Positions 6,706 to 64,000 of a DNA stretch of 64,000 nucleotides are shown here, piece by piece. How positions within the stretch are numbered: position 1 is the first letter of the stretch; each line of letters begins with the position of its first letter. The notes under the pieces are model-generated. The model saw only the letters and a list, made by a program, of their open reading frames with translations. It was not told the origin of the DNA and ran no database searches. Source of the DNA: an uncultured virus (IMG/VR IMGVR_UViG_3300035498_001541) (taxonomy: Duplodnaviria > Heunggongvirae > Uroviricota > Caudoviricetes); IMG/VR virus record IMGVR_UViG_3300035498_001541. One strand, written 5' to 3'. The position numbers and the translations under genes were made by a program.

Positions 6706-7914
6706 TTAATTAAACTGGTCTAATGATTTCGTTGACAAAGGCTTAAGTTTTCCGCGATAATCGCTCTGTTCAAAAGACGTAGCCTCCATCACTGCTTTTC
6801 TTGCTTCCACTTTTTCTTTTGCTGCTGTACTAGTATTCATAGTTACAACCTGACTCAATGTCTTTCCCTGTAAGACACTACGCAACTTAATAACAGCAAG
6901 CTTCACATCAGACTCAGTGCTATCCTTTCTCAGACCTTCAATGATCTGTATTATTTTTTGTAGTTCAACACTACTAATAAGGTTCTGTATTTCTCTAGCT
7001 TCCGATGCAGTGAAGTCGCACTTCACACCACCATCAATCAGAAAAGCTGCATCAACACAGAAATCCCTAAGTGACCTCACAAAAACATCTGTTGTCACTT
7101 TATCAATACAATCTTCCAACAGCTCTATCACAGTAGAAAAGCTGGAAAATTTCATTGCATTAAACAATGAGATAAACTCTCCGGTTCCAATCTCCTGCAA
7201 ATAGTCTCGCATCTCTTCAACACTGACATAGTTCTCCGAGGCAAAGTCTATAAGCTTCTCAATATCTCTTGGTATTCCTTTACTGTTCTTTACAATCATA
7301 GAAACAATTTCACCAGAAACAGTAACGTGCTTCTCGCTTGCAATCTTCTTGGCTAAGATTGTCGATTCCTTCTTGTTAAGACGGTTGAAAGTAAAAGGAA
7401 TTGCCCTGCTCCTCAAATCATTTGGGATATCATGAACTGCAGTTGTGCACATAATAATATAAACACCTTTGGGCATCTTATCTATCTCAGCAAGAAAGGC
7501 AGTAAATCCGCCCCTAATATTCTTGATAGCATGTGCTTCCTCAAAAATATACACCTGTTTACCATTGCCACTCTGCAAAACGAAAACATCCTTAATCAGA
7601 CTTTCAATATCCTCGAACTTACTTGTCTTTCCGAGATTCACTACCTTAACGTATGGTGAAACACCAACTTCTTCCAGTGCAAGCTTATTGGCTTTGCAGG
7701 CTTCGCACTCCAAACAGGGCTCCCCATCTACAGGATTCTGGCACGTCAGAGTCATTGCAGCAATTCCTGCACACGTACTCTTTCCAGTACCCAATACACC
7801 ACCGAAAATCGTGAACTTTTTAAACGTTTCATAGGTAAGTGATCTTTTCAGCAAATTGATAGTTGATGCATTACCTACGAGTGAACTAAACTTATATTTT
7901 CTCATAAAAGGCAT
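6706..7914 (-). CDS. dnaX: DNA polymerase III clamp-loader gamma/tau-like AAA+ ATPase
   Basis: RKYK-F-SLVG N-terminus, Walker A GVLGTGKST, Zn module CQNPVDGEPCLECEAC, Walker B YIFEEAH, sensor LRSRA, G-PRD motif. Confidence 0.9.
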   Translation of the reverse strand: MPFMRKYKFSSLVGNASTINLLKRSLTYETFKKFTIFGGVLGTGKSTCAGIAAMTLTCQNPVDGEPCLECEACKANKLALEEVGVSPYVKVVNLGKTSKFEDIESLIKDVFVLQSGNGKQVYIFEEAHAIKNIRGGFTAFLAEIDKMPKGVYIIMCTTAVHDIPNDLRSRAIPFTFNRLNKKESTILAKKIASEKHVTVSGEIVSMIVKNSKGIPRDIEKLIDFASENYVSVEEMRDYLQEIGTGEFISLFNAMKFSSFSTVIELLEDCIDKVTTDVFVRSLRDFCVDAAFLIDGGVKCDFTASEAREIQNLISSVELQKIIQIIEGLRKDSTESDVKLAVIKLRSVLQGKTLSQVVTMNTSTAAKEKVEARKAVMEATSFEQSDYRGKLKPLSTKSLDQFN

Positions 7915-11001: not shown

Positions 11002-12036
11002 TTAGAACTCCCTTATGAAACTGTCTAAATCTAATGTTTTTGTTGCTACTCGTGACTGATGCTGCAAATTCCTATCAGCTGCAAACTCCCCACTCGACAG
11101 CTTAGACGACTTCTCTCGCAGCATCTGTTTATCTTCTTCGGAAACAAAAGCCCTCTTAGCCCCAAGACTATTCAAGCTATCCTGGTCTCCGTAAAGTGTA
11201 AGAAATTTGTAAAACTTCTCTTTGTTCACATCATCAAAAAATACAGGCTTAATCTCGACACCTTCTGGCTTCTCTGCCGGATACACAAGCTTCACATTGT
11301 CGTATAGCACTTGAAACTCTTCCGGTGTAAAAAGACCACTGGTGTTGGCAAAAACTAAAGGTGTTTTCCAGAAAGAAGTTATCCAGTAATTATTACCATC
11401 TTCTCTCTGTGAAAGCCACTTAACAAATTCATAGTAAATCTGTTTTCCTTTCATACCATTAGAGAGTTTGATTCCCTTAATCTTGTCAGACGAGCATCCA
11501 CAGAAAGCCTTGTATGCACTGATGGTGTTAAACTTAATAGTCTCACCAATCTCAACTGACTCCACAAAATTTCCCGGATGAATACACCCAACACCCGGAA
11601 CAATGGACTTAAAGCGAACCCCCGGCTGAATACTGTGACACAAGTCATAGTCATTTCCGACAATCACAATATCATCGTATTTACCAACGCAATCTCTCAC
11701 TGCCCAATCGACAATATCATCTGCTTCAAAACCATCATACTTCTCGCACCTAATACCACAGCCAAGCATCCCATCGTAAATAGTCTCAATCTGCCCAATT
11801 ACCTCAGGAGACCTCTGCCGACCAGACTTATAATCCGGATTCATATCTTTCCGAAACGTAGGACTGTCAAAACAGAGCACTACGCTATCTCTGCAACAAA
11901 ACCCAACACACAGCTGACGCATCAGATAGTGGATTCCACCAACAGGATAATTATAGTATCTCCTATCCTTGAAAAACTTGGAATGTGACCCTGTATGAAC
12001 TAAAGCCGAAACATCAATTATCAGCAAATTATTCAC
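11002..12036 (-). CDS. Stand-alone 5'-3' exonuclease / flap endonuclease (Pol I N-terminal, T5 D15-like)
   Basis: LLIID, CFDSPTFRKDMNPDYKSGR, GFEADDIV, GNDYDL and GCSSDKIKGI (H3TH) motifs. Confidence 0.92.
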   Translation of the reverse strand: MNNLLIIDVSALVHTGSHSKFFKDRRYYNYPVGGIHYLMRQLCVGFCCRDSVVLCFDSPTFRKDMNPDYKSGRQRSPEVIGQIETIYDGMLGCGIRCEKYDGFEADDIVDWAVRDCVGKYDDIVIVGNDYDLCHSIQPGVRFKSIVPGVGCIHPGNFVESVEIGETIKFNTISAYKAFCGCSSDKIKGIKLSNGMKGKQIYYEFVKWLSQREDGNNYWITSFWKTPLVFANTSGLFTPEEFQVLYDNVKLVYPAEKPEGVEIKPVFFDDVNKEKFYKFLTLYGDQDSLNSLGAKRAFVSEEDKQMLREKSSKLSSGEFAADRNLQHQSRVATKTLDLDSFIREF

Positions 12037-15744: not shown

Positions 15745-17331
15745 CTACAAAATACTATCCAGATTGTATGGATTAAATACTTCTGAACGAACTGCTTCTG
15801 TAAGGGAATCCTCGAAAGAGTTCCTATTCTTAATCACAGTCTCTTTCAGCACTTTCTCCATCTGGTAAGGCTGTTCGCACTCAAGCAACTTATCAGTAAG
15901 TTCACTGTCAAACTCTAAAAACTCAACGTATGGTTGGTCTTTACCAGGTACATTGCCAGTATTCTTACACCTTTCACAGCCATGATTCACACTGACACTA
16001 ACCACACCACGTTTCTTCAGAAACTCAGCAATATTTCTATCAAGCGTATCTACAAGAACCTTGTCCTTACAATACGGGCAGGGAACTTGATACATCTTCT
16101 GATTAAAGACACCATTAATCTGTGAAATAATATTCTTGTATTCTTCCCCATAGTATTCTTTCAACTTGTAAGGCAGATGCCAAATTCTATCCACGTGCAT
16201 AGTAGTGATTACATACACAGAAGAATTCACCAAATCCTGTACAGCGAAAGCTACCTCCTTGTTAGGCAACTCGTTAATAAAAGCCACGTTAATATCCTGC
16301 TTCTTTGCTAAACGAACAGCCTCCAACAACTCCTCCGGTTCCCCACCATAGTCAATCTGTGTGAATGGCATAAGAACCTCAATAGGATACTCATAGCTCA
16401 CAATCTTGATTGGCTGCTTTGTCAACTCATTAGCAAGAGCAAAAGCAGTGGTGTTCTTACCGGTACGAATTGCACCTGTAATAAACACAATTCCAGAACG
16501 CTTCTTAATCATATCCCTTAAAGCACTCTGTACAGTCTGAGAAAATCCTAACCGGTCAATGGTAAAGTTAAACGTCTCCTTCTTCTGAATACGAATAACA
16601 CACTGCCAGCCATCCAGCACTTTATTTGCCGCGATACGCAACTCAACTGCATTATTACCCAATGGGTCATTTGACATAGCAGTTACACCAGCCGGTGTAA
16701 TCAAATCCAGACTGTTAGCATTTGTCTTGTTCTCAATCAATGAACTGATAATAGACCTGTTAAGCTCTGCATCCAACTCAAAGAGCTCCATCTCGTAAAG
16801 CATACCATTCACCCTGTATTTTACAGGATACCGAATCACACCAAGCATAGGATGCTCTACACAGAAATGTAAATCTGTAGCACCTAAAGACAGAGCCTCC
16901 AGAAGAATCCTCTTAAACAGAATAGTTCTGTTGAAAACTTCAAACTTCTTATCCGGATCTTCTAAACACTTGAAATTGTATGGTGTTACAGCAATAAACT
17001 TCACGTCGCATTTATCCATCTCCAACTCAATGGCATTCTTGTCCACATCATCAAAGAAGGAATAGTATACTGTACACTTTGTATTCTGCCGTACAACTTT
17101 CACAGAGTACCGCTTTTCAATCCTGTTTACATCCGGATCAAAATCTTGCTCCAAACTCTCTACTGATAGCACCGGGTCTTCACACACTACTTCCAAATTA
17201 GCTATGATTGATGCTCTCGGACAAAACTTATACATCTCAAGAATCATCAACTGTTCTTCTAATTCTGTGATAGCCTCGTCTGTGAAGATTCTTAGTACCT
17301 CAGGAGTCCTAATAAAATCTTCTATCCTCAA
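15745..17331 (-). CDS. Type II/IV secretion (PilB/GspE-family) ATPase, divergent
   Basis: GATDLHF, YRVNGML, Walker A GAIRTGKNTT, Asp-box SYEYPIE, KQDINVAFINE, His-box TTMH, Zn motif CPYC...GCERC. Confidence 0.88.
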   Translation of the reverse strand: MRIEDFIRTPEVLRIFTDEAITELEEQLMILEMYKFCPRASIIANLEVVCEDPVLSVESLEQDFDPDVNRIEKRYSVKVVRQNTKCTVYYSFFDDVDKNAIELEMDKCDVKFIAVTPYNFKCLEDPDKKFEVFNRTILFKRILLEALSLGATDLHFCVEHPMLGVIRYPVKYRVNGMLYEMELFELDAELNRSIISSLIENKTNANSLDLITPAGVTAMSNDPLGNNAVELRIAANKVLDGWQCVIRIQKKETFNFTIDRLGFSQTVQSALRDMIKKRSGIVFITGAIRTGKNTTAFALANELTKQPIKIVSYEYPIEVLMPFTQIDYGGEPEELLEAVRLAKKQDINVAFINELPNKEVAFAVQDLVNSSVYVITTMHVDRIWHLPYKLKEYYGEEYKNIISQINGVFNQKMYQVPCPYCKDKVLVDTLDRNIAEFLKKRGVVSVSVNHGCERCKNTGNVPGKDQPYVEFLEFDSELTDKLLECEQPYQMEKVLKETVIKNRNSFEDSLTEAVRSEVFNPYNLDSIL

Positions 17332-30308: not shown

Positions 30309-30348
30309 AATTTTGTACCAACCTTTCTTTAAATAATTGATTTACTAG

Positions 30349-30395
30349 AGTACCCGAAGGCACTAAATTACTGGTAAAGCTTCTCACCTTACCAG
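30349..30395 (-). promoter_or_regulatory. Two-hairpin 5' leader including a C(UUCG)G tetraloop
   Basis: Minus strand CTGGTAAGG-TGAGAAG-CTTTACCAG (30371-30395), then AGTGCC-TTCG-GGTACT (30349-30364). Confidence 0.55.
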
Positions 30396-30410
30396 CACTT
30401 TTTAATACAC

Positions 30411-30434
30411 AAAAATAAAGCCGCAAAGGGCTTT
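30411..30434 (-). terminator. Probable intrinsic terminator after the primase gene
   Basis: AAAGCC-CTTTGC-GGCTTT followed by ATTTTT. Confidence 0.55.
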
Positions 30435-30457
30435 TGTTTCTAACTATTGTTCTACAT

Positions 30458-31210
30458 TTAATTAGGGTCATTTGCAAGATTGCGTAGTTCCCTTATTGCT
30501 TGCTCTCTATACTCAGACTTAAGTAAACCATCCACATCCTTCTGATACTTCTGCCTAAATAATTTGAGATTCTTAACTCTCAATCCAAGTTCTCTCTGCA
30601 ACTTCAAACCGGCATCGTCGTTATCAGCAGCAAGTATCACATGCTTAACAAAACGAAGCAAAGTCACATTCTCATTAGTCAGTGAAGAACCCATCAATGC
30701 TGCCGAGTTAAACCCGGCTTCTCTCAGACTGATTGCATCGAACAATCCGTCAACAACCACAATATAGCCGTCGGTCAATGCCTTCTCATATGAATCCAAA
30801 GGGCAATACAAATACGACCCTTTCTTAAAAATCTGCTTTGAGCTGTACTGATAATACAGAATAGACCAATCACCAGTCTCATGTGCCTGCACGTAGTTCA
30901 ATGGATTAAAACCACCTAGACCGGCTATCTTTCCTGCAACATTGAAAATTGGAACAATCAAATTATTATTCCAAATACAGTTACCATCAAAGTCATAGCA
31001 TCCAAGTTCCGGATTACGTATAGCATCTCCGCAGTACAAAGCCAAATAATCATCATTAGGTACAAAGACCATTCCGTATCTCTCTGTATCGAAAAGCTCC
31101 ATACCTCTTGCCTTGCAAATCACCTTTGTAAAGTTCCTCTGGCTCTGTGCATCCTCTTTCCAAATCCTCTGTATTCCGGAAAGCACTAAACTGCTCATTT
31201 CTTCTATCAT
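30458..31210 (-). CDS. DnaG-like primase catalytic core (Toprim) without Zn-binding or helicase-binding domains
   Basis: LIVPIFNVAGKIAGLGG, FKKGSYLY, VVVDGLFDAISL, MGSSLT, AADNDDAG. Confidence 0.88.
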   Translation of the reverse strand: MIEEMSSLVLSGIQRIWKEDAQSQRNFTKVICKARGMELFDTERYGMVFVPNDDYLALYCGDAIRNPELGCYDFDGNCIWNNNLIVPIFNVAGKIAGLGGFNPLNYVQAHETGDWSILYYQYSSKQIFKKGSYLYCPLDSYEKALTDGYIVVVDGLFDAISLREAGFNSAALMGSSLTNENVTLLRFVKHVILAADNDDAGLKLQRELGLRVKNLKLFRQKYQKDVDGLLKSEYREQAIRELRNLANDPN

Positions 31211-31950
31211 AGCAAATACACCATGTTCTCTTTCTGATAGTCTTCCCTAGTTGTCTCTGTGCATGTAAAGCTACAATGCAGATTTGTTCCCTTACTCAAA
31301 GTAGGAAACTCCTTATCATACTCTGTAACTTTACCATCATCACATTTACCATTTACAAAAGTTAAAGGCAGTACAACTGACCGCTCCAAAATCCTCTTAA
31401 TCAGATAAGCATACACCATATCTTTAAAAGAATTTCGATTAGACTCTATGCTGTTCGTGTTCTTTGTCAGCCAATTTAGCACCTGCCCTTCAGTGCTGAA
31501 TCTAAGGAGCATCCCATCGTCAGGATTCAACACTCTCGAAACAACCTTGCCATCTTTCAACTTAAAGACTGAGCCAAAATACCCGTCTCTAATCAAGGCT
31601 GCTCCAGATTCATACTTCTTCTCCTTAGCAACAACAGTAAAGTCTGTCAAATCCAAGGTCTCCAGACCCAAAGGCGTTCCCCATACGAAAACATTCAGAT
31701 TATCAATCTGCTCTGTAGTTTCAATCTGGGACCTAACTCCATCAAGCACACTGAGGAAACCATTGATACTGTTAAGCACCTCTTCACTGCCATTGTAATC
31801 CTTCATCATCATCTGACGCAGACGAATCATACTTTTGTCATCACCAAGAAGCTTCACTAAAAAATCTCGTTTGGAAAGACCATCACCTTTCTTACTATAG
31901 GTTTTCTCTAAATCTTTCCAAACATTCATCACCTTATCTACATTACTCAT
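31207..31950 (-). CDS. Hypothetical protein (247 aa)
   Basis: AGGAGG SD; no motif recognised. Confidence 0.8.
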   Translation of the reverse strand: MSNVDKVMNVWKDLEKTYSKKGDGLSKRDFLVKLLGDDKSMIRLRQMMMKDYNGSEEVLNSINGFLSVLDGVRSQIETTEQIDNLNVFVWGTPLGLETLDLTDFTVVAKEKKYESGAALIRDGYFGSVFKLKDGKVVSRVLNPDDGMLLRFSTEGQVLNWLTKNTNSIESNRNSFKDMVYAYLIKRILERSVVLPLTFVNGKCDDGKVTEYDKEFPTLSKGTNLHCSFTCTETTREDYQKENMVYLL

Positions 31951-31959
31951 GATAACCTC

Positions 31960-32676
31960 CTATTTAGAATGAAGACCTTTTACATAGTTCAAATGATGCT
32001 GTCTAAGAATTTCGCTGTTCTTATCAAAAGCTTCTTTTACGTGCTTCATGCAATCCATATCCCAAACAGCTTCTCCTGGATTACGAAGGTATGATATCAA
32101 AGTATCCTCAGTCAAACAGGGCATCTCTTGCTTTGCTGCACGAGAACGCTTATCCACCAACTCGCCATTACTGAAATTAAACATACACATCTGAACTAAG
32201 GGTGTTCTCCCTTTAAGAGTGAAACCGTCAAGCCATGGCTCAAGAACTCCCTTGTGCAAAAGACTCTGCTTGTAAACATCAAACCCATTTCCAGAATCAC
32301 GTTTCAAAATCCCCTGCCCAATCAGCTCTTTGTTACCTGCGTATGATTTACACTCGAAAATATACACGCACTCAGTGGTGAATAACATAAAGTCTATCTC
32401 CGTAAAAAAGTTCTTCTGAATATGCACTCTATCTTTCAATACAGTGCCTTTGCAAAACAACCAATCACGTGCAGAGCTATTTCTCTTAATCTCATCACGA
32501 ATTAAAATCTCCAGAACACACTCGCAAATCTCTCCATGAATAGCCTGCTTAAACTTTACATTGTCAGCATACTTCTGTGAATGAAAAACATCATGTGCTT
32601 TCTGCAAAGTTTGCTTACCACCGTACTTGGCATACCAATCCATCATCTGCTTGTGCGTAGCATCTTTATATGTCAC
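31960..32676 (-). CDS. NERD-domain (PD-(D/E)xK) nuclease
   Basis: GEICE, TEIDFMLFT, VYIFECKSYAG, YKQSLLH; probable GTG 32676 after GAGGTG. Confidence 0.82.
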   Translation of the reverse strand: MTYKDATHKQMMDWYAKYGGKQTLQKAHDVFHSQKYADNVKFKQAIHGEICECVLEILIRDEIKRNSSARDWLFCKGTVLKDRVHIQKNFFTEIDFMLFTTECVYIFECKSYAGNKELIGQGILKRDSGNGFDVYKQSLLHKGVLEPWLDGFTLKGRTPLVQMCMFNFSNGELVDKRSRAAKQEMPCLTEDTLISYLRNPGEAVWDMDCMKHVKEAFDKNSEILRQHHLNYVKGLHSK

Positions 32677-32689
32677 ACCATTCACCTCA

Positions 32690-33931
32690 TCACTTCTTTT
32701 TCGGTTTAATTGTAAAATGCGATGTAATATAACCATCGCATGAAACCGTAATCTTAATCTTTGTTTTCTTTTTCAGCTTCTTTTTCAAAGATAGCTTAAA
32801 AGTACCGTCCTCCATTGTTCCGGAATAGGTTTTACCAAAAACTCTTATCTTCAGTAGTGCACCAGGTGTAATTCGTCCTGTAATCCTCTTTGTCCCAATC
32901 TTTGCTTTTACATCAGTAAGCGTACAACGCTTTACATTTGTTGTCTCTGTTGCGATAGAGTTTCTATCAGTGTTTGGATTCATTGCAGTTGGTTTAAAGG
33001 AAATCTCACAGAACCTTGGGTAATTCACCTCTACATAGTAAGTGCCTTTTGCTAAAGCACTAGTTAAATCTGTCAGGGTATTTGATGAATCCTCTGCTTC
33101 ATAAGTGTTGCTGTATACCTTAGTGCCTGCACTATTGTAGATAACTGTATCGTATGAAAGTGCAGTAGACAAATTACTTGGTCTTGTAATACTCAGTGCA
33201 AAATACAAAGCCTTCCGCTTACTCAGCTTAACTTTGAAATATTGCTTTGTGATAGAATTGCTGGTTACAGCTATTGTCTGGCTATTCATTACAGTTAAAC
33301 CAGTAATATTTCCGTATGAGGTCTTCCCATTCTTCGTAGGAATAGCAGTCTTCATAGATGCTCCTGTTTTACTGCCAGTTCTTGCTTTCATCTTCTGTGC
33401 ATTGATACCAATATTTACACACGGATTAGCCACAAAAGAAGGCTCCTCTTTATTCCTACTCTGCTTGTAGATTGTAACCTTGAGATAGTATGTACCGGCT
33501 TCTAAAGCTGTCTCAAAACTATCAGTTGCCTTACTGTAATCACCATCAACAGTAGTTGTACTACCTATCAAAGTATTCACATAACTGGGATTCTCACCGA
33601 GATAAAACTCTGAGTAACACAATGAACTCTCGTAAACTGATGCATTGTATTGAATATTTACATAGCTATTCTTCTCAAGAGTAAAACTGTACTGCACATC
33701 AAAGCTACCTGACAAAACACCATTTGCCGGTGTGAAAACATCAGTCCCCAAAACCGTATTCGTTGACAAATTCACAGAAGATGAAATTGCCTTCTGGTAT
33801 ACAGGAACAACTTCTCCACCATCAACAAAATTGAAACTAGCTGCTGACACCTTCTTGGTAAAATCAATACCAGAGAAGCACCCCAATAACAATGCCGCTA
33901 TCAAAATACCACTAAATAATTTCTTCATCAT
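32690..33931 (-). CDS. Secreted surface protein with PPC-like beta domains and a Lys-rich C-terminal Ig-like domain
   Basis: Signal peptide ending VSA; repeated LEAGTYYLKV / LAKGTYYVEV; C-terminal ITGRITPGA...DGTFKLSLKKKLKKKTKIKITV. Confidence 0.8.
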   Translation of the reverse strand: MMKKLFSGILIAALLLGCFSGIDFTKKVSAASFNFVDGGEVVPVYQKAISSSVNLSTNTVLGTDVFTPANGVLSGSFDVQYSFTLEKNSYVNIQYNASVYESSLCYSEFYLGENPSYVNTLIGSTTTVDGDYSKATDSFETALEAGTYYLKVTIYKQSRNKEEPSFVANPCVNIGINAQKMKARTGSKTGASMKTAIPTKNGKTSYGNITGLTVMNSQTIAVTSNSITKQYFKVKLSKRKALYFALSITRPSNLSTALSYDTVIYNSAGTKVYSNTYEAEDSSNTLTDLTSALAKGTYYVEVNYPRFCEISFKPTAMNPNTDRNSIATETTNVKRCTLTDVKAKIGTKRITGRITPGALLKIRVFGKTYSGTMEDGTFKLSLKKKLKKKTKIKITVSCDGYITSHFTIKPKKK

Positions 33932-33939
33932 TAACCTCC

Positions 33940-35706
33940 TTACGCTTGAAACTCTGGAATCTTCTTTACAGACTTAATGAACTCTTCCATGCTGGAGATT
34001 GGTGGTTCCGTTACTGACTCAAGACCATTAGCCTTGCAGTAGCAGCATACAGCGTATCTGCACAAAGACGAAACTTTTAAGAACTGTGTTCCAGACATCT
34101 TTACATAACTTAAGTATGTACCATTGGAAAAATCTTCGGTATCAACTAAGCTGTTGTAAATAATAATACCCCTGTACTCATCGTCAAACTTACAATCATG
34201 TATCATTTGCTGAATGGCGATACTTACTTCTTCTGGCACATTAGAAAACACAACTGTGCTATGTGCTAAATTCCTATCCTCATCATAGAAAGCCACAATT
34301 GTCTTGTCATACACAGCCATGCACGCAACATACCACTTTGCTACTTTCTTTGTTGGATAATACACAGAGTCAGAAAATGGTTCCGGTTCGACAACTCCAA
34401 TCTTTGACTTGTTCTGTCTAACTGAATCTTTAAACTTAGTCATCAGCTCTTCATCAGCAATGCCATAGTTATACCCCAGCTCAAATGACATTGCTAAAGG
34501 ACTCCAGTCATCCACAAAGATTGTGCTGAAATCCTCCAGAATCCAAATATCCTTTAGTACTCTCTTACTAATCTTAAAGACTGGCTCATCATGCCTTACA
34601 AGATAAATACTGATATCATCTTCTGTATACCCAAGTCTATAAAACCTATCAAGAATCTCATTTACAGTCCTAATAATCATCTCACTGGTACCGGTCTGTA
34701 TTGGAGCATTCAATGCTCTATTTACTGTATCCGTCTTTTTGTATTGAATTGGGCTTGACTCCTCATACCCAAAATAACTGGTCAAGGCAACAGGCAACCC
34801 TAAATCATGTGCGTCATTCAGACGATTGTAATACTCCACATACCGCGGACACATACTTAGGAAGTTTGAGAACATAGAAATAAATCCCTTATCCTCCTCA
34901 ATCACTGAGTTCCTTGTACCGTACATTACAGCAAGTGTATTCTTCTTATAAACTTGACGCTGCTCCAAGAACTTCTCCTTGTCAAACTTCTCACCAAGCT
35001 TATTTGAGATAATACGAGCAAGAGCTTCATACTTATCATCATACTTGTTCATGATTTCGTCATTCTCTTTGCTACGTAAAAACAAATTATATGCAATTCT
35101 GAAATCTGACTGCGCAAAATCACCCCAAGCCAGAAAATACCCGTCCTCCACACCAATACACTTTGAAATCTCTTTTGGTATCTGAGCAATAACATCATGA
35201 TTGGAATAATTAAACCTGAGATTCACTTGCTGACGAGCAGTGTACCCCAACTTAGCCAGCATCTTTCCATTCCTGTCAGCAATCTCAGGCGCCGGTGTAT
35301 TCTTAATCAATGAAGCAGCACGCTCACTCCTAGACTTCAAAGACTTATACCCAGTGTAGTATGCAAGAAACTCAGTAGCATACCCATTCTGCATCAGAGG
35401 TCCTAAAACCTTTTTCATATCCAGTGAAAGCGACTGTGTTTTCCTTGATGTAAAATAGTGATAAGGACAAAACTCGTAGTCAATCAGATATTTGATAATG
35501 CAATCTTTGGTAGTAATTCTTAATCTACCATGACTCTTCTGTATCATTAAGTCTGTGAACATAGACAGCATTGCACTAGACTTGCTGGACAACTCACGTT
35601 GATACATTCCCATTGCATCTTTATCGTACAAAATATACTGATTCCTATTTATCCTCTCAGCGTATTTCTCAACGTCAATAGTATCATTTTTACTATACTT
35701 TACCAT
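33940..35706 (-). CDS. Short family-A DNA polymerase (no exonuclease domains), atypical motifs A and B
   Basis: Motif A GDFAQSDFRI, motif B RQVYKKNTLAVMYG, RALNAPIQTG, motif C RHDEPVF; extra ~150-aa C-terminal domain. Confidence 0.88.
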   Translation of the reverse strand: MVKYSKNDTIDVEKYAERINRNQYILYDKDAMGMYQRELSSKSSAMLSMFTDLMIQKSHGRLRITTKDCIIKYLIDYEFCPYHYFTSRKTQSLSLDMKKVLGPLMQNGYATEFLAYYTGYKSLKSRSERAASLIKNTPAPEIADRNGKMLAKLGYTARQQVNLRFNYSNHDVIAQIPKEISKCIGVEDGYFLAWGDFAQSDFRIAYNLFLRSKENDEIMNKYDDKYEALARIISNKLGEKFDKEKFLEQRQVYKKNTLAVMYGTRNSVIEEDKGFISMFSNFLSMCPRYVEYYNRLNDAHDLGLPVALTSYFGYEESSPIQYKKTDTVNRALNAPIQTGTSEMIIRTVNEILDRFYRLGYTEDDISIYLVRHDEPVFKISKRVLKDIWILEDFSTIFVDDWSPLAMSFELGYNYGIADEELMTKFKDSVRQNKSKIGVVEPEPFSDSVYYPTKKVAKWYVACMAVYDKTIVAFYDEDRNLAHSTVVFSNVPEEVSIAIQQMIHDCKFDDEYRGIIIYNSLVDTEDFSNGTYLSYVKMSGTQFLKVSSLCRYAVCCYCKANGLESVTEPPISSMEEFIKSVKKIPEFQA

Positions 35707-35718
35707 TGTGTATCCTTT

Positions 35719-35943
35719 CTACTTACCAAGCATTATCAAAACAGCACTGACAATGCCAAGCACTAAAATCCCGCCAACCAATGTGCCTAATGATGCACAC
35801 AACGACACAAGCACCACATCAAGCACTGACCTATGGCTGACAATCATAAAGACTAATACAGCAACAAAAACAACAATCGCTAAGTAAATCAACATCTTAG
35901 AGCAAAAGGTTAATCTCTTGTTCCATTTTTCACTAAACTGCAT
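35719..35943 (-). CDS. Small two-TM membrane protein (74 aa)
   Basis: Two hydrophobic segments; GAGG SD. Confidence 0.75.
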   Translation of the reverse strand: MQFSEKWNKRLTFCSKMLIYLAIVVFVAVLVFMIVSHRSVLDVVLVSLCASLGTLVGGILVLGIVSAVLIMLGK

Positions 35944-35965
35944 ACCTCTATCACTCCTCTCAAAT

Positions 35966-35997
35966 TAAAAAGATAGTCAGCTTCTACACTGGCTATC
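35966..35997 (-). terminator. Intrinsic terminator after the FtsK/EssC-like gene
   Basis: GATAGCCAG-TGTAGAAG-CTGACTATC followed by TTTTT. Confidence 0.7.
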
Positions 35998-36046
35998 CTA
36001 CTATTTTTTTAATACAAACTCAAAAGTACCAACAGGGTAATCATCA

Positions 36047-38212
36047 TCAGATAATTTCACCATCATGCAGCATCTTCTTAAACTTCTTGCATGGATTTAT
36101 TGAGTCGCTCTTGTCCCACAATACCGCAAGCTTGTTTAATACTGTATCTGGATAATACTCGCTGCATTTTATCTTGTTAATCTCAGATGTTGTTAAACTT
36201 TCCATCAATACCCAGCGTATTCCACCAAGCAAGGCATTGATATCTTCCATTGATGCTGTAACAATAATAAACCTACAAGCAACAGCAGAACTATCCTGCA
36301 ACACCTTCAAGTATTCCTGCACATATTTTGACTTTGATGAACGGCCTAAACCAATAATCCTGTCAATACCAATATCCCAGAAATAAGCTGGTGGCAAATC
36401 CTTAAGTGTTACAAGCTTCTCTGAACACCCAAACTGCTTGCACATAGTCAGGCAATTCTTAGCAAAGTTTATCATCTCTGTAGAAATCTTTAACTGTCCT
36501 GCAGAGTTTGCATTCTCGACCAAACCTAAACCAACCTGTGTGCTTGTATCGGAACTCATCAAACGTAAGTAGTGAGAAAATCTCTCCCTAAATGTCGTGG
36601 TTTGAAATTCTGGACTGTCTTTAAGATGCTCATCAAACAACTGATTAGATACTTCAGTTGAGCACTTAATACCATTTGACAACATCTTATCCGCTTCAAG
36701 AATCATCCTGCGTTTGTAAACCGTTGTCTTTGCTATTGCATAGAAATTAGAGCCATCGTACTGTTTCTCTTCAAAAAACAAACGACCTGCTAACTCCGAA
36801 ATATTGGAAATCCTATCAATCTCGTTACGCACGCAATTCACAACATTAGTTACTCCCTGTTGCAGTTCGAGATTCTTCTTTATCATTATTACATAGCGAG
36901 ACATTGCATAGTCAGTTGGTGCATCAATCAGAATATTCTCAATATCATCACCAACTAGTTCTAGCTTTACGCACTGGTCTTTATCATGCATTACAAAAGA
37001 AGGCTCCCCTAAAAGAATCCGGTCTTTCCCATACGTAAACCTTTTGAGATAATCTGTATAGTTGCGCGTGTACACCATTGCTTCTTCATCGTAAAAGCTC
37101 ATAATTGGTGTAACTTCCATCTCTTTTCCTTTGTTAATTATTGTTGATGACATTTCTTTTATCTGGTCTGGACTAGGAAATGGTACTCTGTACAAAACAT
37201 TATTCTCACCCTTCTCATCGCCGCCACCACCAGTGTTAAGATACATATAACCCTGCTTACCATAGTTGTCATATCCTTTGGGATTACCAAGCACCATCGT
37301 ACTTACATCCTTACCGCACCCCATTGCCATACGAACCTTAATATTTGACAATGTAGCTTTTGGGATATCACTACCTAACTCCTGTGATGCCATCAACAAA
37401 TGAAAACCGGTGTTACGACCAAGTCTTGCAAAATCATCAAGATACCCTGTTAGCTTACTTGCTTTCTTCTTAGCATTACTAAACATGGCTTGAAACTCGT
37501 CGATATCAATGATAATCCTTGGCAAAGCTAAACCAGTTACTTTCTTGAAATCCTCTATCTTCTTTACTTCCTTACCAAAAACTTCCGAAGCTTTTGTGAA
37601 AATACTATTGCGGTCCTTCATAGCTTGTGCTTGGTCTCCCATTACTGAGATAAGATAATCTGCATCCTGTGTAGCACCAACAGCTATAATCTGTGGCATA
37701 GGATTATTCATAGCAATACTTTTAAACTCTACAATCTTTGCATCGCAGAGAACAAAGTTAAGCTCCCATGGCGGATAAATATAATTGGCTCCGTAAATCA
37801 AAGCATTCTGCGTTACGGATTTACCTTGACCGGTGGCCCCAACTAAAATACCATGGATATCTTTATCGCCAAGAGCAACATCACACATATATCTACTGTC
37901 ACCATTCTTGTAACCGCACAATAACGTAGTCCCTTGCGTAGTCTCACCAAACCACATCTCACCGTATGGACCCTCAATAGGTTTTTCAATGGTAATCACT
38001 CTGCTAGGCTCAAAATCACCAAGTAGCATCTCAGGCACTGACTTTGGAAATTTGACCTGGTATGGATATTTCTTAGCAACTTTCTTAGACATTCTTGGTA
38101 TAATCTTCTGCAAGAAATCCTTCTCGGTGAAAGCTGCTCCCCTTGAGTTCTTGTAAGCATCCACAAACAAATCAGTATTCTTCTGTAAATCTAAATTACT
38201 CAGAGATAGCAC
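36047..38212 (-). CDS. FtsK/SpoIIIE-family (EssC/EccC-like) ATPase: one intact and one degenerate domain, no TM
   Basis: IHGILVGATGQGKS, ELNFVLCDAK, LPRIIIDIDEFQ, ARLGRNTGFHLLMASQ; second domain begins ILLGEP...ENILI and has no Walker A. Confidence 0.88.
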   Translation of the reverse strand: MLSLSNLDLQKNTDLFVDAYKNSRGAAFTEKDFLQKIIPRMSKKVAKKYPYQVKFPKSVPEMLLGDFEPSRVITIEKPIEGPYGEMWFGETTQGTTLLCGYKNGDSRYMCDVALGDKDIHGILVGATGQGKSVTQNALIYGANYIYPPWELNFVLCDAKIVEFKSIAMNNPMPQIIAVGATQDADYLISVMGDQAQAMKDRNSIFTKASEVFGKEVKKIEDFKKVTGLALPRIIIDIDEFQAMFSNAKKKASKLTGYLDDFARLGRNTGFHLLMASQELGSDIPKATLSNIKVRMAMGCGKDVSTMVLGNPKGYDNYGKQGYMYLNTGGGGDEKGENNVLYRVPFPSPDQIKEMSSTIINKGKEMEVTPIMSFYDEEAMVYTRNYTDYLKRFTYGKDRILLGEPSFVMHDKDQCVKLELVGDDIENILIDAPTDYAMSRYVIMIKKNLELQQGVTNVVNCVRNEIDRISNISELAGRLFFEEKQYDGSNFYAIAKTTVYKRRMILEADKMLSNGIKCSTEVSNQLFDEHLKDSPEFQTTTFRERFSHYLRLMSSDTSTQVGLGLVENANSAGQLKISTEMINFAKNCLTMCKQFGCSEKLVTLKDLPPAYFWDIGIDRIIGLGRSSKSKYVQEYLKVLQDSSAVACRFIIVTASMEDINALLGGIRWVLMESLTTSEINKIKCSEYYPDTVLNKLAVLWDKSDSINPCKKFKKMLHDGEII

Positions 38213-38217
38213 TACAC

Positions 38218-38904
38218 TCACCTCCGAAATGCGTTCATAGGACGACTTTTCTCATCATACTTGATATTTTGAAACTCCCTAACATACTGATTGCAGAGGT
38301 CTCTCCACTCAACCAACTTCTCGAAAGGACTTGTCTCCTTTAAATACCTAATTGCGCTGTTGGGGTCGATTCTTCCCCACTCAGATAACGCCCGAATATT
38401 CGGTACATTACCTATGGAAGAAAAAGCGTAACCCATCTCATAAGCAAAGTTAATCTCAACCTGTTCCTCTGCCATACTAAATATCAAATCATTGACGACA
38501 GATGAATTATTAGTAGGAATCATGAAAAACTGATACATCTTTGCTACAAAGCTATCGCCTGGTACTAAATACATAGCGTCGCTAACCGCATGAACTACTT
38601 TATCCATACACTCACCAATTGGCAATGTAAGAGCTAACACGTAAAGCATAATTCGTGGGTCATCCGCAACAATGTTGATATCCTTAAGCAGACCGTTAAA
38701 CCAATTCTTGTGCCAACCTTCAAGAGTATAAATATTTCCGTATTTTACAGTATCGTAAAGACACGCAGTTGTACACATAAAGAATGCAGGTGAAGGTTCT
38801 TTCTGACCATTAAAGTCACCAAGGTATGACTCGTTAGGCATAGCACAATCCGGCACACCAAATCGCTCTGTTCTTATCATATCATCGAACTCTGGTATAA
38901 TCAT
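38218..38904 (-). CDS. Hypothetical protein (228 aa)
   Basis: AGGGGGTG SD; adjacent to the FtsK-like gene. Confidence 0.8.
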   Translation of the reverse strand: MIIPEFDDMIRTERFGVPDCAMPNESYLGDFNGQKEPSPAFFMCTTACLYDTVKYGNIYTLEGWHKNWFNGLLKDINIVADDPRIMLYVLALTLPIGECMDKVVHAVSDAMYLVPGDSFVAKMYQFFMIPTNNSSVVNDLIFSMAEEQVEINFAYEMGYAFSSIGNVPNIRALSEWGRIDPNSAIRYLKETSPFEKLVEWRDLCNQYVREFQNIKYDEKSRPMNAFRR

Positions 38905-38918
38905 CTTTTCACCCCCTT

Positions 38919-38958
38919 AAAAATTAAAAGCGCTCCCAGCCTAAACTGGAAACGCTTT
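38919..38958 (-). terminator. Intrinsic terminator after the 825-aa gene
   Basis: AAAGCGTTTCCAG-TTTAGG-CTGGGAGCGCTTT followed by TAATTTTT. Confidence 0.75.
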
Positions 38959-38965
38959 ACTCTCA

Positions 38966-61094: not shown

Positions 61095-64000
61095 TCAACC
61101 TCCATTAGTTACATCTGCAACCATGTTCTGAAGCTTCCCTAAATTAACATTCTTGCTAATTGAATTAGCATACACAAAATGCCCATTTGGTTCACAGAAC
61201 AAAATACGTGTATCAGTTCCAGGATACTTCTCTAAAGTTCTTGAGATAATCCTTTGTTGCTTAATTGTATCAACATCAATCAGAACAAGATTCTGAATAG
61301 TACAAACTCTATCCCTTTCCTCTGACACAAGATACTCCACAAACTTATCCAGCACACCAATATCGTAGCTATCAGAAACCTTTTCCCATCGGTCAAAGAC
61401 ACCAGGGCACTTCACAATTACCCTGCATCCCGACGGAACAACATCATTTCTGAGAAACTCCTTAACACTGTCAATCTGGCTATTGTTCTTTACAGAAACA
61501 ACAATCTGACCATTCAGCTTTTTAACATGGTGATACTTTTCCTTTACCACTGTCATAGCAGTAACATCATCTGCATCCTTGTTATCATAGTTAAATACAA
61601 GTTCGTCCTCTTCAAACTTCTCTACAGACTCATCACGACACTCCTCGTCATAGACCAGCTGAGCACTGTCCTCATCAAAACTCCAGTTCTCTTCTTCCTC
61701 CCCGGAGTCTTTATCAAACAGCTCGTCGTAATCAACAAAGTCTTCATCGAAATCATCAGACTCCTGCTCTTCTTCTACTGCTTTAGTTACTACATATGTC
61801 TCCTCACCCAACTTAAAAGACACCGGCTTATCAAACTTCGACAATGCCCATGTCTCCAATCTCTTTATCCACTTTAAGTCCTCGAACAAACTTTCCTCAT
61901 AGCTATTGCTTGGCTTGAAGTCTGGTTCACCGTTCATCTCGTAATCATTCACGTATGCACGAACCGTATAATTAGTAAACTCAACAAGCAACTCATCCAA
62001 ATCTAAAGGCTTCTCCGGAAAATCTGGTTGTAGTGTCTTAATTACCTCACCAATTCTGTCCTCAACATACTGAGCCCTTAATGGCTTAATCAAATCATCC
62101 CAAGGATGCTCAAATACTGTCTTCTCTCTAAACTCTCCGGCATCATACCTCTTTATCATTCTCTCCACAAAGTACACTGGAGCCTCTCTTGCATCATCCT
62201 TGCACTCGCCCCAAGAATCTCCCATATTGATACCCACAAAATACTTAGTGTGACCCTTCATTGTAATCATACAAGCTTTCTTTACAATCTTGTAAATAAG
62301 CATAGGGTTTACGTCATTCTTAACACTGCAAAGTAGCTCATCATGAATCAACATATACCACTTTACTTTGTCTTGAATCCCATATTTTTCACACTCTTGA
62401 TAAAAGCGTATCAGGATTATTCTAAAGATCTCTGCGGCAGTTGCCTGTATTGGATAGTTACCTGCCTTACGTCTAATACTAGCTTCCTCCGGCGTGTATT
62501 CACCCTGCGCCCTTCTTGCAGCACCGGCTGGTGACAAATCCACACCCTCAAGACTAAAGGTACGATAAAAACCAAGAATATTCTCACACTTGCTGATAGG
62601 CGAAGGAATCTTCTTACCCTCTGCATCAAGCAAGTACTCCCCATTCTCATCCTTCTTGTAGGCATCCATAAACTCTCTCAAGTCATCACTAATCTTCCAC
62701 TCTGTAAGAGCTTCAGCACGTGACTTCTCAAGCAAGTCAATAATAGGTTTGTTCTGTTGACGCCACTTATGCAAGGTAACTCTAGTCTCCACCATATGCT
62801 CCTTGCTCCTATCCTTAAACATCGTCTCACACATACTGGCATCACCCAAACCGTAAGGAACGCCGAAAGACACACTCTTTGCTTTCTTTCTCTCTTTCTT
62901 AGAAATACGGTATGCAGGCTTACCCTCAACCATAGAAGCTGTCTCTGTATGGTAGTCATTCTCTGGATTGCACATCTTCTTAATCATTGGTTCAAACTTT
63001 GCTAAAGAAAGCATGATACGGTATTCAATCTGAGCCATATCAAAATCCAACAAATAGTCATCATCCGAATAGGGCTTCACAACTGCTTTCAAGCTTCCTT
63101 TCATTGTCTGACCCGGATTAGAGATTCTTCGAGTTTCGATACGAGCCATATTATAGCCCTTAAAAATCTTGCCCTCCAGATTGTTCTCTGCCATTGGTTT
63201 GTAGTACCCTGTGTACTCTTTATTCAGCTCTGTGTACTTCTGAATTATCAGAGCCAGCGGGTATTTAAGACTGTTAAACTGTTTGGCACTAATCAATACC
63301 AAACTATCAGCCTTCTTACCCTTGCCCTCAGCTCTCAGCTTTGCAACCTCGGCATGAGTAGCACCATACACCAAAATATCAGCCTGCAACTTTCTTGGTG
63401 CTATGTCACCCTCTTTCAGCTCATCCCTCAGCAACTTAGAAATAGCGTACTTGTCAATCTTAGGCAACCGTTTCTTTCCCTCAGTGTAAGCCTTTATTGG
63501 GTATTTCATAATATCGTACAGTACAGTTCTCAGCTGAGCCGGTTTAAACTCAAACTCATATCTAGCATTTGGGTCAGGAACTACTGCATCAACTGCAGCT
63601 TTGTATTCTTCCTCACTCTTAAACTTGCCAGACTCCCAAGCCAGCTTCAAAACCTTTAGCTCATTAGAGTATTGAACAAAAACACCAACATAGGAATACA
63701 TAGCATTTTTCAGAATCTCAATATTCTGATAGTTCTGCTCTGCCAACTCCTGCACTTTCTCCTGCACTGTATTCATTCCCCAGTACTCAGACTGATACAG
63801 AATATTATCCATTGGAACATCCTGTCTCTGATACCAGTAATACATCTTGTCAGACATCAAAGACCTCAGCTTATAGAAGCAAGCCAAAGTATAGTCTGCA
63901 TCAGCGCAACCGTATATCTCTGCAACTTCCCTGTCAGCTAAATATCGGTACTTGTCCTCATTACCCTTTCCTAACACATCTTCCAACTCTGGAGTCTCGT
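61095..64000 (-). CDS. polA: Large family-A DNA polymerase with 3'-5' exonuclease and a long C-terminal extension, 5'-partial
   Basis: ExoIII YGCADAD, motif A DFDMAQIEYR, motif B RKKAKSVSFGVPYG, NYPIQATAA, motif C LIHDELL; frame open to the right edge. Confidence 0.93.
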   Translation of the reverse strand, partial: ETPELEDVLGKGNEDKYRYLADREVAEIYGCADADYTLACFYKLRSLMSDKMYYWYQRQDVPMDNILYQSEYWGMNTVQEKVQELAEQNYQNIEILKNAMYSYVGVFVQYSNELKVLKLAWESGKFKSEEEYKAAVDAVVPDPNARYEFEFKPAQLRTVLYDIMKYPIKAYTEGKKRLPKIDKYAISKLLRDELKEGDIAPRKLQADILVYGATHAEVAKLRAEGKGKKADSLVLISAKQFNSLKYPLALIIQKYTELNKEYTGYYKPMAENNLEGKIFKGYNMARIETRRISNPGQTMKGSLKAVVKPYSDDDYLLDFDMAQIEYRIMLSLAKFEPMIKKMCNPENDYHTETASMVEGKPAYRISKKERKKAKSVSFGVPYGLGDASMCETMFKDRSKEHMVETRVTLHKWRQQNKPIIDLLEKSRAEALTEWKISDDLREFMDAYKKDENGEYLLDAEGKKIPSPISKCENILGFYRTFSLEGVDLSPAGAARRAQGEYTPEEASIRRKAGNYPIQATAAEIFRIILIRFYQECEKYGIQDKVKWYMLIHDELLCSVKNDVNPMLIYKIVKKACMITMKGHTKYFVGINMGDSWGECKDDAREAPVYFVERMIKRYDAGEFREKTVFEHPWDDLIKPLRAQYVEDRIGEVIKTLQPDFPEKPLDLDELLVEFTNYTVRAYVNDYEMNGEPDFKPSNSYEESLFEDLKWIKRLETWALSKFDKPVSFKLGEETYVVTKAVEEEQESDDFDEDFVDYDELFDKDSGEEEENWSFDEDSAQLVYDEECRDESVEKFEEDELVFNYDNKDADDVTAMTVVKEKYHHVKKLNGQIVVSVKNNSQIDSVKEFLRNDVVPSGCRVIVKCPGVFDRWEKVSDSYDIGVLDKFVEYLVSEERDRVCTIQNLVLIDVDTIKQQRIISRTLEKYPGTDTRILFCEPNGHFVYANSISKNVNLGKLQNMVADVTNGG

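Follow-up and report, generated by a model that had tools for sequence, protein, structure and literature searches.

In family A DNA polymerases (PolAs) the motif A glutamate that serves as the sugar steric gate is treated as a constant of the family, and Taq variants that synthesise RNA are usually made by engineering this residue. This residue (E710 in the Escherichia coli Klenow fragment, E615 in Taq, E2335 in Pol theta) lies opposite the sugar C2' of the incoming nucleotide, with a hydrogen bond to the motif B tyrosine (PMC6158600). A classification of PolAs into 19 clusters names the gate position A2 and reports a 3'-5' exonuclease in all phage PolAs (Czernecki et al. 2023, PMC10201439). 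Substitutions at the residue ahead of the gate, namely Taq I614K and I614N:L616I and Klenow I709F, are listed as taking ribonucleoside triphosphates (rNTPs) better than wild type (table in PMC4854868), and F762, at motif B position B3, has been called a steric-gate assistant (2026 preprint, bioRxiv 10.64898/2026.05.20.726624). Leu occupies B3 in several PolA subfamilies (PMC10201439) and is common in viral PolAs, where five of eight expressed Leu762 enzymes extended primers with deoxyribonucleoside triphosphates (dNTPs; PMC9069017); the same preprint states that rNTP use by natural Leu polymerases is still undetermined. Finally, the only PolA characterised as a priming enzyme is CCPol-MP of staphylococcal SCCmec. 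CCPol is a family A polymerase without exonuclease domains; it retains residues equivalent to E710 and F762, its substrates are dNTPs (PMC7581432), and binding to the OB-fold protein MP enables it to prime de novo (PMC7581432; PMC10061031). Here we compare with these systems P0001, a small, second PolA encoded by a 64,000-nucleotide stretch of DNA (the window) from an uncultured virus of the Caudoviricetes (IMG/VR record IMGVR_UViG_3300035498_001541). Our alignments place P0001 in a large uncharacterised PolA clade defined by an aspartate at the steric gate.

P0001 was identified from the ORF (open reading frame) listing and its translation as a minus-strand ORF of 588 amino acids. A first-pass annotation, made from the letters of the window, had described it as a PolA paralog without an exonuclease domain, with QSD in place of QIE in motif A, Leu at the F762 position and intact catalytic aspartates, next to a large PolA that keeps QIE. 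Codon re-translation bore out each of these residues: motif A reads DFAQSDFR, with Ser200 at the I709 position and Asp201 at the E710 steric gate, and motif B (RQVYKKNTLAVMYG) carries Leu258. The large PolA has canonical motifs throughout (DFDMAQIEYR, RKKAKSVSFGVPYG, LIHDELL), including the Phe. Since an ortholog of the large PolA (open frames of 1251-1433 amino acids) shares a contig with the small one in all five relatives searched whole, P0001 is consistently a second polymerase; the DNA_pol_A_exo1 domain was found in one of the two large-PolA orthologs tested.

The homologs of P0001 were collected at two depths. A word-indexed search gave a narrow set of 202 sequences at E ≤ 1e-3, nearly all of 585-600 amino acids and 38-54% identical, and the 120 listed were aligned. 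An exhaustive profile search against representatives of 50% identity clusters gave a wider clade (410 at E ≤ 1e-3, 265 at E ≤ 1e-10 and 206 at E ≤ 1e-30), whose alignment held P0001 and 132 of the 150 listed representatives, the other 18 being already in the narrow set. Because of these 202 homologs, and the 410 representatives in the second search, the ORF is not a chance frame.

Conservation was strict at the active site. Residues D196, D201, R203, R250, K254, L258, Y262, G263, N333, P335, Q337, R371, H372, D373 and E374 were identical in 120 of 120 sequences of the narrow set, Q199 and S200 in 119, and R164, the arginine of the TGR-like motif, was invariant there and in 128 of 128 rows of the wider clade. 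The wider alignment also had Asp at the gate in all 129 covering rows, Leu in the F762 column in 132 of 132, and Arg ahead of the His-Asp-Glu of motif C in 127 of 132 (Lys in three, Leu and Val in one each). A regular-expression count that permitted either Asp or Glu at the gate found Asp in all 271 sequences parsed, out of 291 in the clade (20 unparsed). By contrast with these columns, the I709 column varied, with Ser in 52, Ile in 38, Ala in 34, Val in three and Met in two rows. The Ser-Asp pair suggested at first therefore has to be divided: Asp is fixed, and Ser varies across the wider clade. We read the clade-wide signature as the Asp gate, the Leu and the Arg before His-Asp-Glu, with Ser typical of the narrow subfamily of P0001 only, and the Asp-Arg pair is particular to this clade. 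All other contacts to metals, triphosphate, template and minor groove are canonical, and the changes are confined to the surroundings of the incoming sugar. Leu762 is likewise real and fixed; as a common natural variant of active phage polymerases it is no sign of rNTP use by itself.

P0001 itself gave a weak match to Pfam DNA_pol_A (PF00476; 22.9 bits, E 4.8e-5), under the curated cutoff of 34.3 bits, and matched no PHROG. Its best PDB sequence match was a chance one (E 0.55), a profile of the 48-sequence small-PolA family had none in the PDB at E ≤ 0.01, tblastn found nothing in the phage collection and nothing in the plasmid collection, and none of the 30 stretches matched by a pattern scan of IMG/VR was confirmed. 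Among its relatives, PF00476 was matched at E ≤ 0.01 by 35 of the 48 family members (best 4.3e-9), and its curated cutoff was passed by 8 of 14 distant clade members, such as P0240 (68.8 bits), a relative of the Gln-Ile-Asp type in motif A. P0240 aligned with E. coli Klenow (HMMER, E 4.5e-10), pairing its motif A Asp with D705, its second Asp with E710, its Leu with F762, its Arg with V880, its His-Asp-Glu with H881-D882-E883 and its 'stgry' with the Klenow 'atgrl'; the alignment between P0001 and P0240 is unambiguous at these motifs.

The predicted structure led to the same family. An AlphaFold2 model of P0001 built from 48 homologs (mean pLDDT, the predicted local distance difference test, 93.5; pTM, the predicted template-modelling score, 0.86) overlaid residues 6-418 on Klenow 524-928 (VIA structural search; Z 23.8-23.9, root mean square deviation 3.5 Å, 371 residues aligned). 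The best 50 of 999 aligned chains were all family A (Pol nu, apicoplast Pol, Pol theta, mycobacterial Pol1, Klenow, Bst, T7, Aquifex and Taq), and the best Foldseek match was Bst Pol I (E 5.7e-15). The equivalences Asp201 to E710 and Leu258 to F762 follow from the P0240-Klenow alignment, the P0001-P0240 alignment and this overlay together. We accordingly assign P0001 to family A by transitive homology and modelled fold, not by its own Pfam score. It has the Klenow-type fold, the catalytic carboxylates, the motif B Arg, Lys and Tyr-Gly, the motif 6 Asn and Gln and the TGR Arg, and it departs from the family in the Glu gate (A2), the Phe or Tyr at B3, the N-terminal 3'-5' exonuclease domain and the Pfam cutoff. 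No exonuclease Pfam domain was matched in P0001, and in Klenow numbering the model opens at residue 524, on the thumb/palm boundary; since the whole polymerase domain is present with nothing ahead of it, the protein has no exonuclease domain, as annotated at first.

Residues 432-588, folded alone with eight sequences (pLDDT 81), gave a beta-beta-beta-alpha-beta... order. The best 50 matches of an exhaustive structural search were all RNase H-like (integrase core, PIWI, RNase H1 and the UvrC endonuclease domain) at weak Z scores of 5.6-7.8, and Foldseek returned an integrase core (E ~6e-4, TM 0.3-0.4). The homolog alignments showed no conserved acidic residues in this C-terminal part, where Pro451 is the sole invariant position, and distant clade members match the profile from position 1 to ~460 only, their C-termini being different. 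From its model we take the domain to be RNase H-like but non-catalytic; it may offer a docking surface.

How P0001 differs from the described enzymes can now be stated. With Klenow, KlenTaq and Bst it shares the thumb, palm and fingers throughout (Z ~24), the catalytic Asp and Asp-Glu, the motif B Arg, Lys, Tyr and Gly, the motif 6 Asn and Gln and the TGR Arg; unlike them it lacks both 3'-5' and 5'-3' exonucleases, has Asp for E710, Leu for F762, Arg for V880 and Ser for I709, carries the added RNase H-like domain and is 13-17% identical to them. The Leu762 phage PolAs (SPO2-like and KPP25-like; Listeria LP-010 and Enterococcus EC99P1) are alike in the Leu and in belonging to Firmicutes phages or mobile elements. 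LP-010 and EC99P1, the nearest cultured-phage PolAs (23-27% identity over 40-48% of a distant clade member), read DFSQQEPR with Leu at B3 and Val-His-Asp-Glu, and enzymes of this type differ from P0001 in the Glu gate, the Val, a 3'-5' exonuclease domain and a length of 755-854 amino acids. Because these Leu762 PolAs keep Glu, Leu does not require Asp. The PolA of Thermus phage P74-26, also among the nearest from cultured phages, reads DYASMELV, with the Glu gate and Phe at B3. Pol nu (Z 25.2) and Pol theta (Z 24.2), also without proofreading, rank with the best structural matches, within ~1 of Klenow, and the P0001 neighbourhood, rich in break-processing genes, fits the comparison; in contrast to P0001, both polymerases retain the Glu gate (E2335 in Pol theta, PMC6158600) and an exonuclease-like domain that is inactive. 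Our literature search found no description of a natural Asp-gate PolA (the motif logos of the 19 clusters in PMC10201439 lay outside its scope) and no polymerase paper on the gate substitutions E710D, E615D, E480D or E895D, and the jumbo-phage review PMC7824862 has no passage on a second PolA.

The reading that we favour, and to which we give an even chance, is that P0001 is an accessory, non-proofreading PolA with a remodelled sugar pocket and relaxed exclusion of rNTPs, acting in primer extension, gap filling or repair. Its fold, residues, conservation and gene context are those described here, and from them we infer the relaxed substrate choice and the role. P0001 would be an active template-dependent polymerase made of a polymerase domain and a catalytically dead RNase H-like C-terminal domain, with a sugar pocket apparently rebuilt by Asp for the Glu gate, Leu for the aromatic beneath the sugar, Arg for Val before His-Asp-Glu and, in the subfamily, Ser for Ile. 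The carboxylate of Asp201 would lie about one methylene further from C2', Leu258 would remove the aromatic platform that presses the sugar onto the gate, Ser200 would make the pocket more polar, and Arg371, which is new, may pair with Asp201. The shorter carboxylate and the lost platform would together lower the barrier to a 2'-OH and so weaken rNTP exclusion. Extension or gap filling without proofreading at RNA-primed sites would be a job like that of Pol alpha or Pol I, beside the primase core, FEN and ligase; an alternative setting would be break repair, where fidelity and sugar purity count less.

Precedents for such an enzyme come from two sides. Engineered Taq and Stoffel variants that use rNTPs (I614K, I614N:L616I and the E615G sets) are changed at the same two motif A positions as P0001 (PMC4854868; PMC6158600); in these laboratory mutants the change is mostly Glu to Gly, whereas the Asp of P0001 is natural, fixed and accompanied by Leu and Arg. 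Mycobacterial DinB2 is a natural accessory polymerase adept at rNTPs by means of a Leu gate, though it belongs to the Y family and uses another gate residue (PMC4176160). Part of the specialised-paralog proposal of the first-pass annotation survives in our reading, in that the changes are fixed by selection, line the sugar pocket and occur in a second PolA; its other supports are weaker than they seemed, as Ser is not general, Leu does not signal rNTP use and the neighbouring primase is not truncated. The Taq precedent that it invoked is also divided, with I614K and I614N:L616I found in the literature as rNTP-incorporating and E615D not found. Relaxation of rNTP exclusion by Taq E615D is reportedly a result of Patel and Loeb (2000), and this lack of confirmation in the literature is one of several points that weigh against the favoured reading. 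The natural Leu762 PolAs that have been assayed are DNA polymerases, five of eight having extended primers in assays with dNTPs (PMC9069017). A review says of E615 that it 'tolerated mainly conservative substitutions' (PMC6158600), so a change from E to D can be compatible with ordinary DNA synthesis. A carboxylate is still present in Asp, and the space left in the pocket may be taken up by the invariant Arg371, so that discrimination could persist. In addition, the residues that check the minor groove are all kept, as in faithful DNA polymerases, and the evidence pointing to primer extension or repair is the gene neighbourhood.

Several of these points speak directly for a rival that we consider possible, short of an even chance: that P0001 is a conventional accessory polymerase restricted to dNTPs and serving in gap filling, Okazaki maturation or recombination, with Asp, Leu and Arg forming a compensated, equivalent gate. 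The canonical catalytic and minor-groove residues are all kept, Leu762 clades include active DNA polymerases (PMC9069017; PMC10201439), and Asp and Arg371 are found together across the clade, whereas the outgroups combine Glu with Val or Ile, a pattern that fits a compensatory pair. A stand-alone FEN on the element, and the NAD ligase, thymidylate synthases and dNMP kinase of a relative, also suit a DNA-synthesising role. What this rival explains less well is that other Leu762 PolAs retain Glu, so that Leu has no need of Asp, that the changes cluster at the sugar pocket, and that hydrophilic residues at 709/614 raise rNTP use in Taq (PMC4854868).

A bolder form of the favoured reading is in our judgement unlikely. 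Here the clade would be a natural PolA lineage whose Glu gate has become an Asp at +5 from the catalytic Asp (D-x4-D), with ribonucleotides as the biological substrate, and its enzymes would make RNA or mixed RNA/DNA, extending or making primers for giant phage-like replisomes as a bacterial-virus analogue of Pol alpha-primase. Motif A of RNA-dependent RNA polymerases is likewise D-x4-D, its second Asp reading the 2'-OH, and the Tyr or Phe gate of reverse transcriptases stands at the same +5 position.

It is more improbable still that P0001 is a primase-polymerase like CCPol-MP, starting synthesis de novo alone or with the Toprim core, a zinc-ribbon protein or its own C-terminal domain. The CCPol precedent (PMC7581432; PMC10061031) shows that an exonuclease-less PolA can prime once bound to MP; like P0001, CCPol-MP and the Pol-SSB (single-stranded DNA-binding protein) pairs of Bacillota mobile elements are A-family enzymes without exonuclease domains in a replication module. 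The small PolA, moreover, lies 3-4 kb from the primase core in six of seven related loci and has an additional C-terminal domain without an assigned role. Against this, CCPol retains Glu and Phe and uses dNTPs, so that an altered gate is no mark of its mechanism, and CCPol-MP is followed by an OB-fold SSB and then a helicase. No Pol-SSB-helicase operon was found at the P0001 locus, where a 413-amino-acid protein with a signal-peptide-like start (in the window only) and the NERD nuclease lie downstream and the FtsK-like gene upstream; as the small neighbouring proteins were not modelled, an OB fold may lie elsewhere.

The element also has a primase already. The first-pass annotation had called the nearby primase truncated, which does not hold: it is a conserved DnaG core of 250-260 amino acids in seven of seven loci, with DGxFD, DNDxAG and KDxD invariant and all six acidic Toprim positions filled, without a helicase-binding domain and without a zinc ribbon (no profile match). 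A separate 244-amino-acid DnaG zinc-ribbon protein (PF01807, 50.1 bits) is encoded ~57 kb from the core in a 250-kb relative, which also carries a DnaB-like helicase, and orthologs of this zinc-ribbon protein (206-245 amino acids) occur in five of five relatives, four times on the element contig and once on a different one. Going by synteny, the 64-kb window would not include the zinc-ribbon gene, and the primase looks split rather than defective. The small PolA need not stand in for this primase. As a side observation, the first Toprim Glu is replaced by Asp (DGxFD invariant) in the window and its relatives L001, L002 and L004-L007 (seven of seven loci).

That P0001 is a PolA-derived DNA-dependent RNA polymerase transcribing the genes of the element is very improbable. 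The Asp at +5 has the motif A spacing of RNA-dependent RNA polymerases, and the Klenow fold is also that of single-subunit RNA polymerases. Even so, no RNA polymerase was among the best 50 of 999 aligned chains, motif C is the His-Asp-Glu of DNA polymerases, no promoter-recognition domain is evident in P0001, and genes for a fused beta-beta' RNA polymerase and for a sigma factor occur in a relative, the window itself having an RpoA-like protein. We rejected as scarcely credible a pseudogene or inactive, decaying paralog, for which the sub-cutoff Pfam score and the lack of a PDB sequence match even by family profile might speak, given catalytic residues invariant in 120 homologs of 38-55% identity and in the wider clade, a confident model and a length kept at ~590 amino acids. 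Free variation at the gate positions, which would have pointed to decay, is excluded by the fixed Asp and Leu, and sequence and model together indicate a real enzyme with an intact polymerase core under selection.

The features of the window are collected in Table 1. Essentially all its long ORFs lie on the minus strand, with a strongly negative GC skew throughout (-0.12 to -0.38 per 2 kb). Relatives are carried by cultivable bacteria such as Acetivibrio ethanolgignens and Lachnospiraceae 47-T17. Seven related loci came from GTDB genomes of Lachnospiraceae and other Clostridia, and they keep the order DnaQ-like exonuclease, SbcC-like protein, 825-amino-acid protein, FtsK-like ATPase, small PolA, NERD protein, Toprim core, 474-amino-acid protein and SbcD-like phosphoesterase. 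The FtsK-like ATPase, small PolA and NERD gene form a kept trio in all seven, and the 413-amino-acid protein between the last two in the window, with no counterpart at that place in the seven loci, is probably an inserted cargo gene. UvrD-like helicase, SbcC-like protein, RecJ-like exonuclease and SbcD-like phosphoesterase genes are also present in the window. An atlas cluster of P0001 is labelled mostly viral, and the public names are 'hypothetical protein' or 'family A palm domain-containing protein'. Three identical 151-nt contigs fell within 30000-39000, two of them in the small PolA gene (one gut RNA library); they are too few to show expression, and DNA carry-over is possible.

Table 1. 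Coordinates of the small PolA, its motifs and codons, and other features of the window
Feature	Coordinates	Strand	Basis and remarks
Small exonuclease-less family A polymerase P0001	33940..35706	-	Translation; weak Pfam DNA_pol_A; AlphaFold2 model
P0001 polymerase domain (thumb, palm, fingers), residues 6-418	34453..35691	-	Klenow overlay; Foldseek
P0001 TGR-like motif region NLRFNYSNHDVIAQIPK, Arg164 at R668 position	35173..35223	-	Re-translation; alignment
P0001 motif A DFAQSDFR: catalytic Asp196, Ser200, Asp201	35098..35121	-	Codon re-translation
P0001 Ser200 codon (I709 position)	35107..35109	-	
P0001 Asp201 codon (E710 steric-gate position)	35104..35106	-	
P0001 motif B RQVYKKNTLAVMYG: Arg250, Lys254, Leu258, Tyr262, Gly263	34918..34959	-	Re-translation
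P0001 Leu258 codon (F762 position)	34933..34935	-	
P0001 motif 6 LNAPIQTGTSE: Asn333, Gln337 at N845, Q849 positions	34681..34713	-	Re-translation
P0001 motif C RHDE: Arg371 (V880 position), His372, Asp373, Glu374	34585..34596	-	Re-translation
P0001 C-terminal domain, residues 432-588: RNase H-like fold, no conserved acidic residues	33943..34413	-	Separate model
FtsK/EssC-like ATPase, upstream neighbour	36047..38221	-	Pfam FtsK_SpoIIIE; adjoins small PolA in 7/7 related loci
413-aa protein between small PolA and NERD gene	32690..33931	-	Signal-peptide-like N-terminus; weak PPC/Big/CHU_C matches
NERD-domain nuclease-like protein, downstream neighbour	31960..32736	-	Pfam NERD; after small PolA in 7/7 related loci
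DnaG-type primase catalytic core (N-subdomain and Toprim), 250 aa	30458..31210	-	Pfam Toprim_2; TIGR01391 dnaG positions 198-354 of 414
Stand-alone DnaQ-like 3'-5' exonuclease, 207 aa	44503..45126	-	Pfam RNase_T; PHROG 'DNA polymerase exonuclease subunit'; syntenic in 4/7 loci
Large canonical PolA, C-terminal 967 aa, N-terminus beyond window	61095..63998	-	Pfam DNA_pol_A 111.6 bits; QIE, Phe, IHDE
Stand-alone 5'-3' (FEN-type) exonuclease	11002..12036	-	Pfam 5_3_exonuc_N 59.4 bits
DnaX-like clamp loader	6706..7914	-	Pfam DNA_pol3_delta2; TIGR02397 E 2.7e-40
PilB/GspE-type secretion ATPase	15745..17331	-	T2SSE 97.8 bits
RpoA-like protein, 207 aa	9799..10422	-	TIGR02027 E 1.6e-7 (alpha N-terminal domain); Pfam RNA_pol_L 23.3 bits, just below cutoff
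Very large ORF, 1794 aa	885..6269	-	No Pfam, PHROG, NCBIfam or PDB sequence match
Very large ORF, 1066 aa	56053..59253	-	No Pfam, PHROG, NCBIfam or PDB sequence match

The most informative relative is a syntenic contig of 250,423 bp (G002:C37, L016-L028), with 205 of 214 ORFs on one strand, a GC content of 0.339 and 10 tRNAs clustered at one end. It also encodes a fused beta-beta' RNA polymerase, a TubZ/PhuZ-like tubulin, NAD ligase, dNMP kinase, two thymidylate synthases, an integrase, a sigma factor and an RF-1-domain protein; a PHROG match to 'ribonucleotide reductase' proved on closer look to be a pyridine-nucleotide oxidoreductase. The PilB/GspE-type ATPase, which stands amid replication genes in the window, is present in this relative too. 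The fused beta-beta' RNA polymerase of a syntenic relative has 2877 amino acids (L025:10047-18680), and the element may encode its own multisubunit RNA polymerase. A phmmer search of three large neighbour proteins against the PDB gave nothing. Contigs of ~260-268 kb are found repeatedly for one protein cluster, a length that may mark a discrete replicon.

The gene set of the element comprises a large PolA with an exonuclease domain, a clamp loader, a split DnaG primase, FEN, RecJ, UvrD and SbcCD-like proteins. No Terminase_6N or HK97-capsid Pfam domain was matched on the element contigs of five relatives, and no capsid, portal or terminase PHROG was found at E ≤ 1e-5 in 151 of the 182 ORFs of at least 120 amino acids in the 250-kb relative, a scan that left out 31 ORFs at 140-185 kb and 10 ORFs crossing piece borders. 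We read the element as a giant one (at least 130-250 kb), jumbo-phage-like or plasmid-like, of gut Lachnospiraceae; since no virion gene was recognised in the relatives scanned, it may be either phage or plasmid.

As judged from the alignments, P0001 represents a large uncharacterised variant of the family A polymerases, which is not yet evidence of ribonucleotide use. With 410 representatives (50% identity clusters), seen on hundreds of contigs from gut metagenomes, a gate Asp in all 129 covering rows, Leu in all 132 and a new Arg beside the catalytic Asp in 127 of 132, the clade amounts to a natural experiment on sugar selection, and it makes testable the question left open by the preprint, namely whether natural Leu762 polymerases incorporate rNTPs. 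If relaxed selectivity is true, these small (~420-amino-acid core), exonuclease-free enzymes would be of biotechnological interest, and in giant elements a proofreading replicase would share the work with a sugar-tolerant helper. Should selectivity prove normal, the clade would represent a second structural solution for the steric gate.

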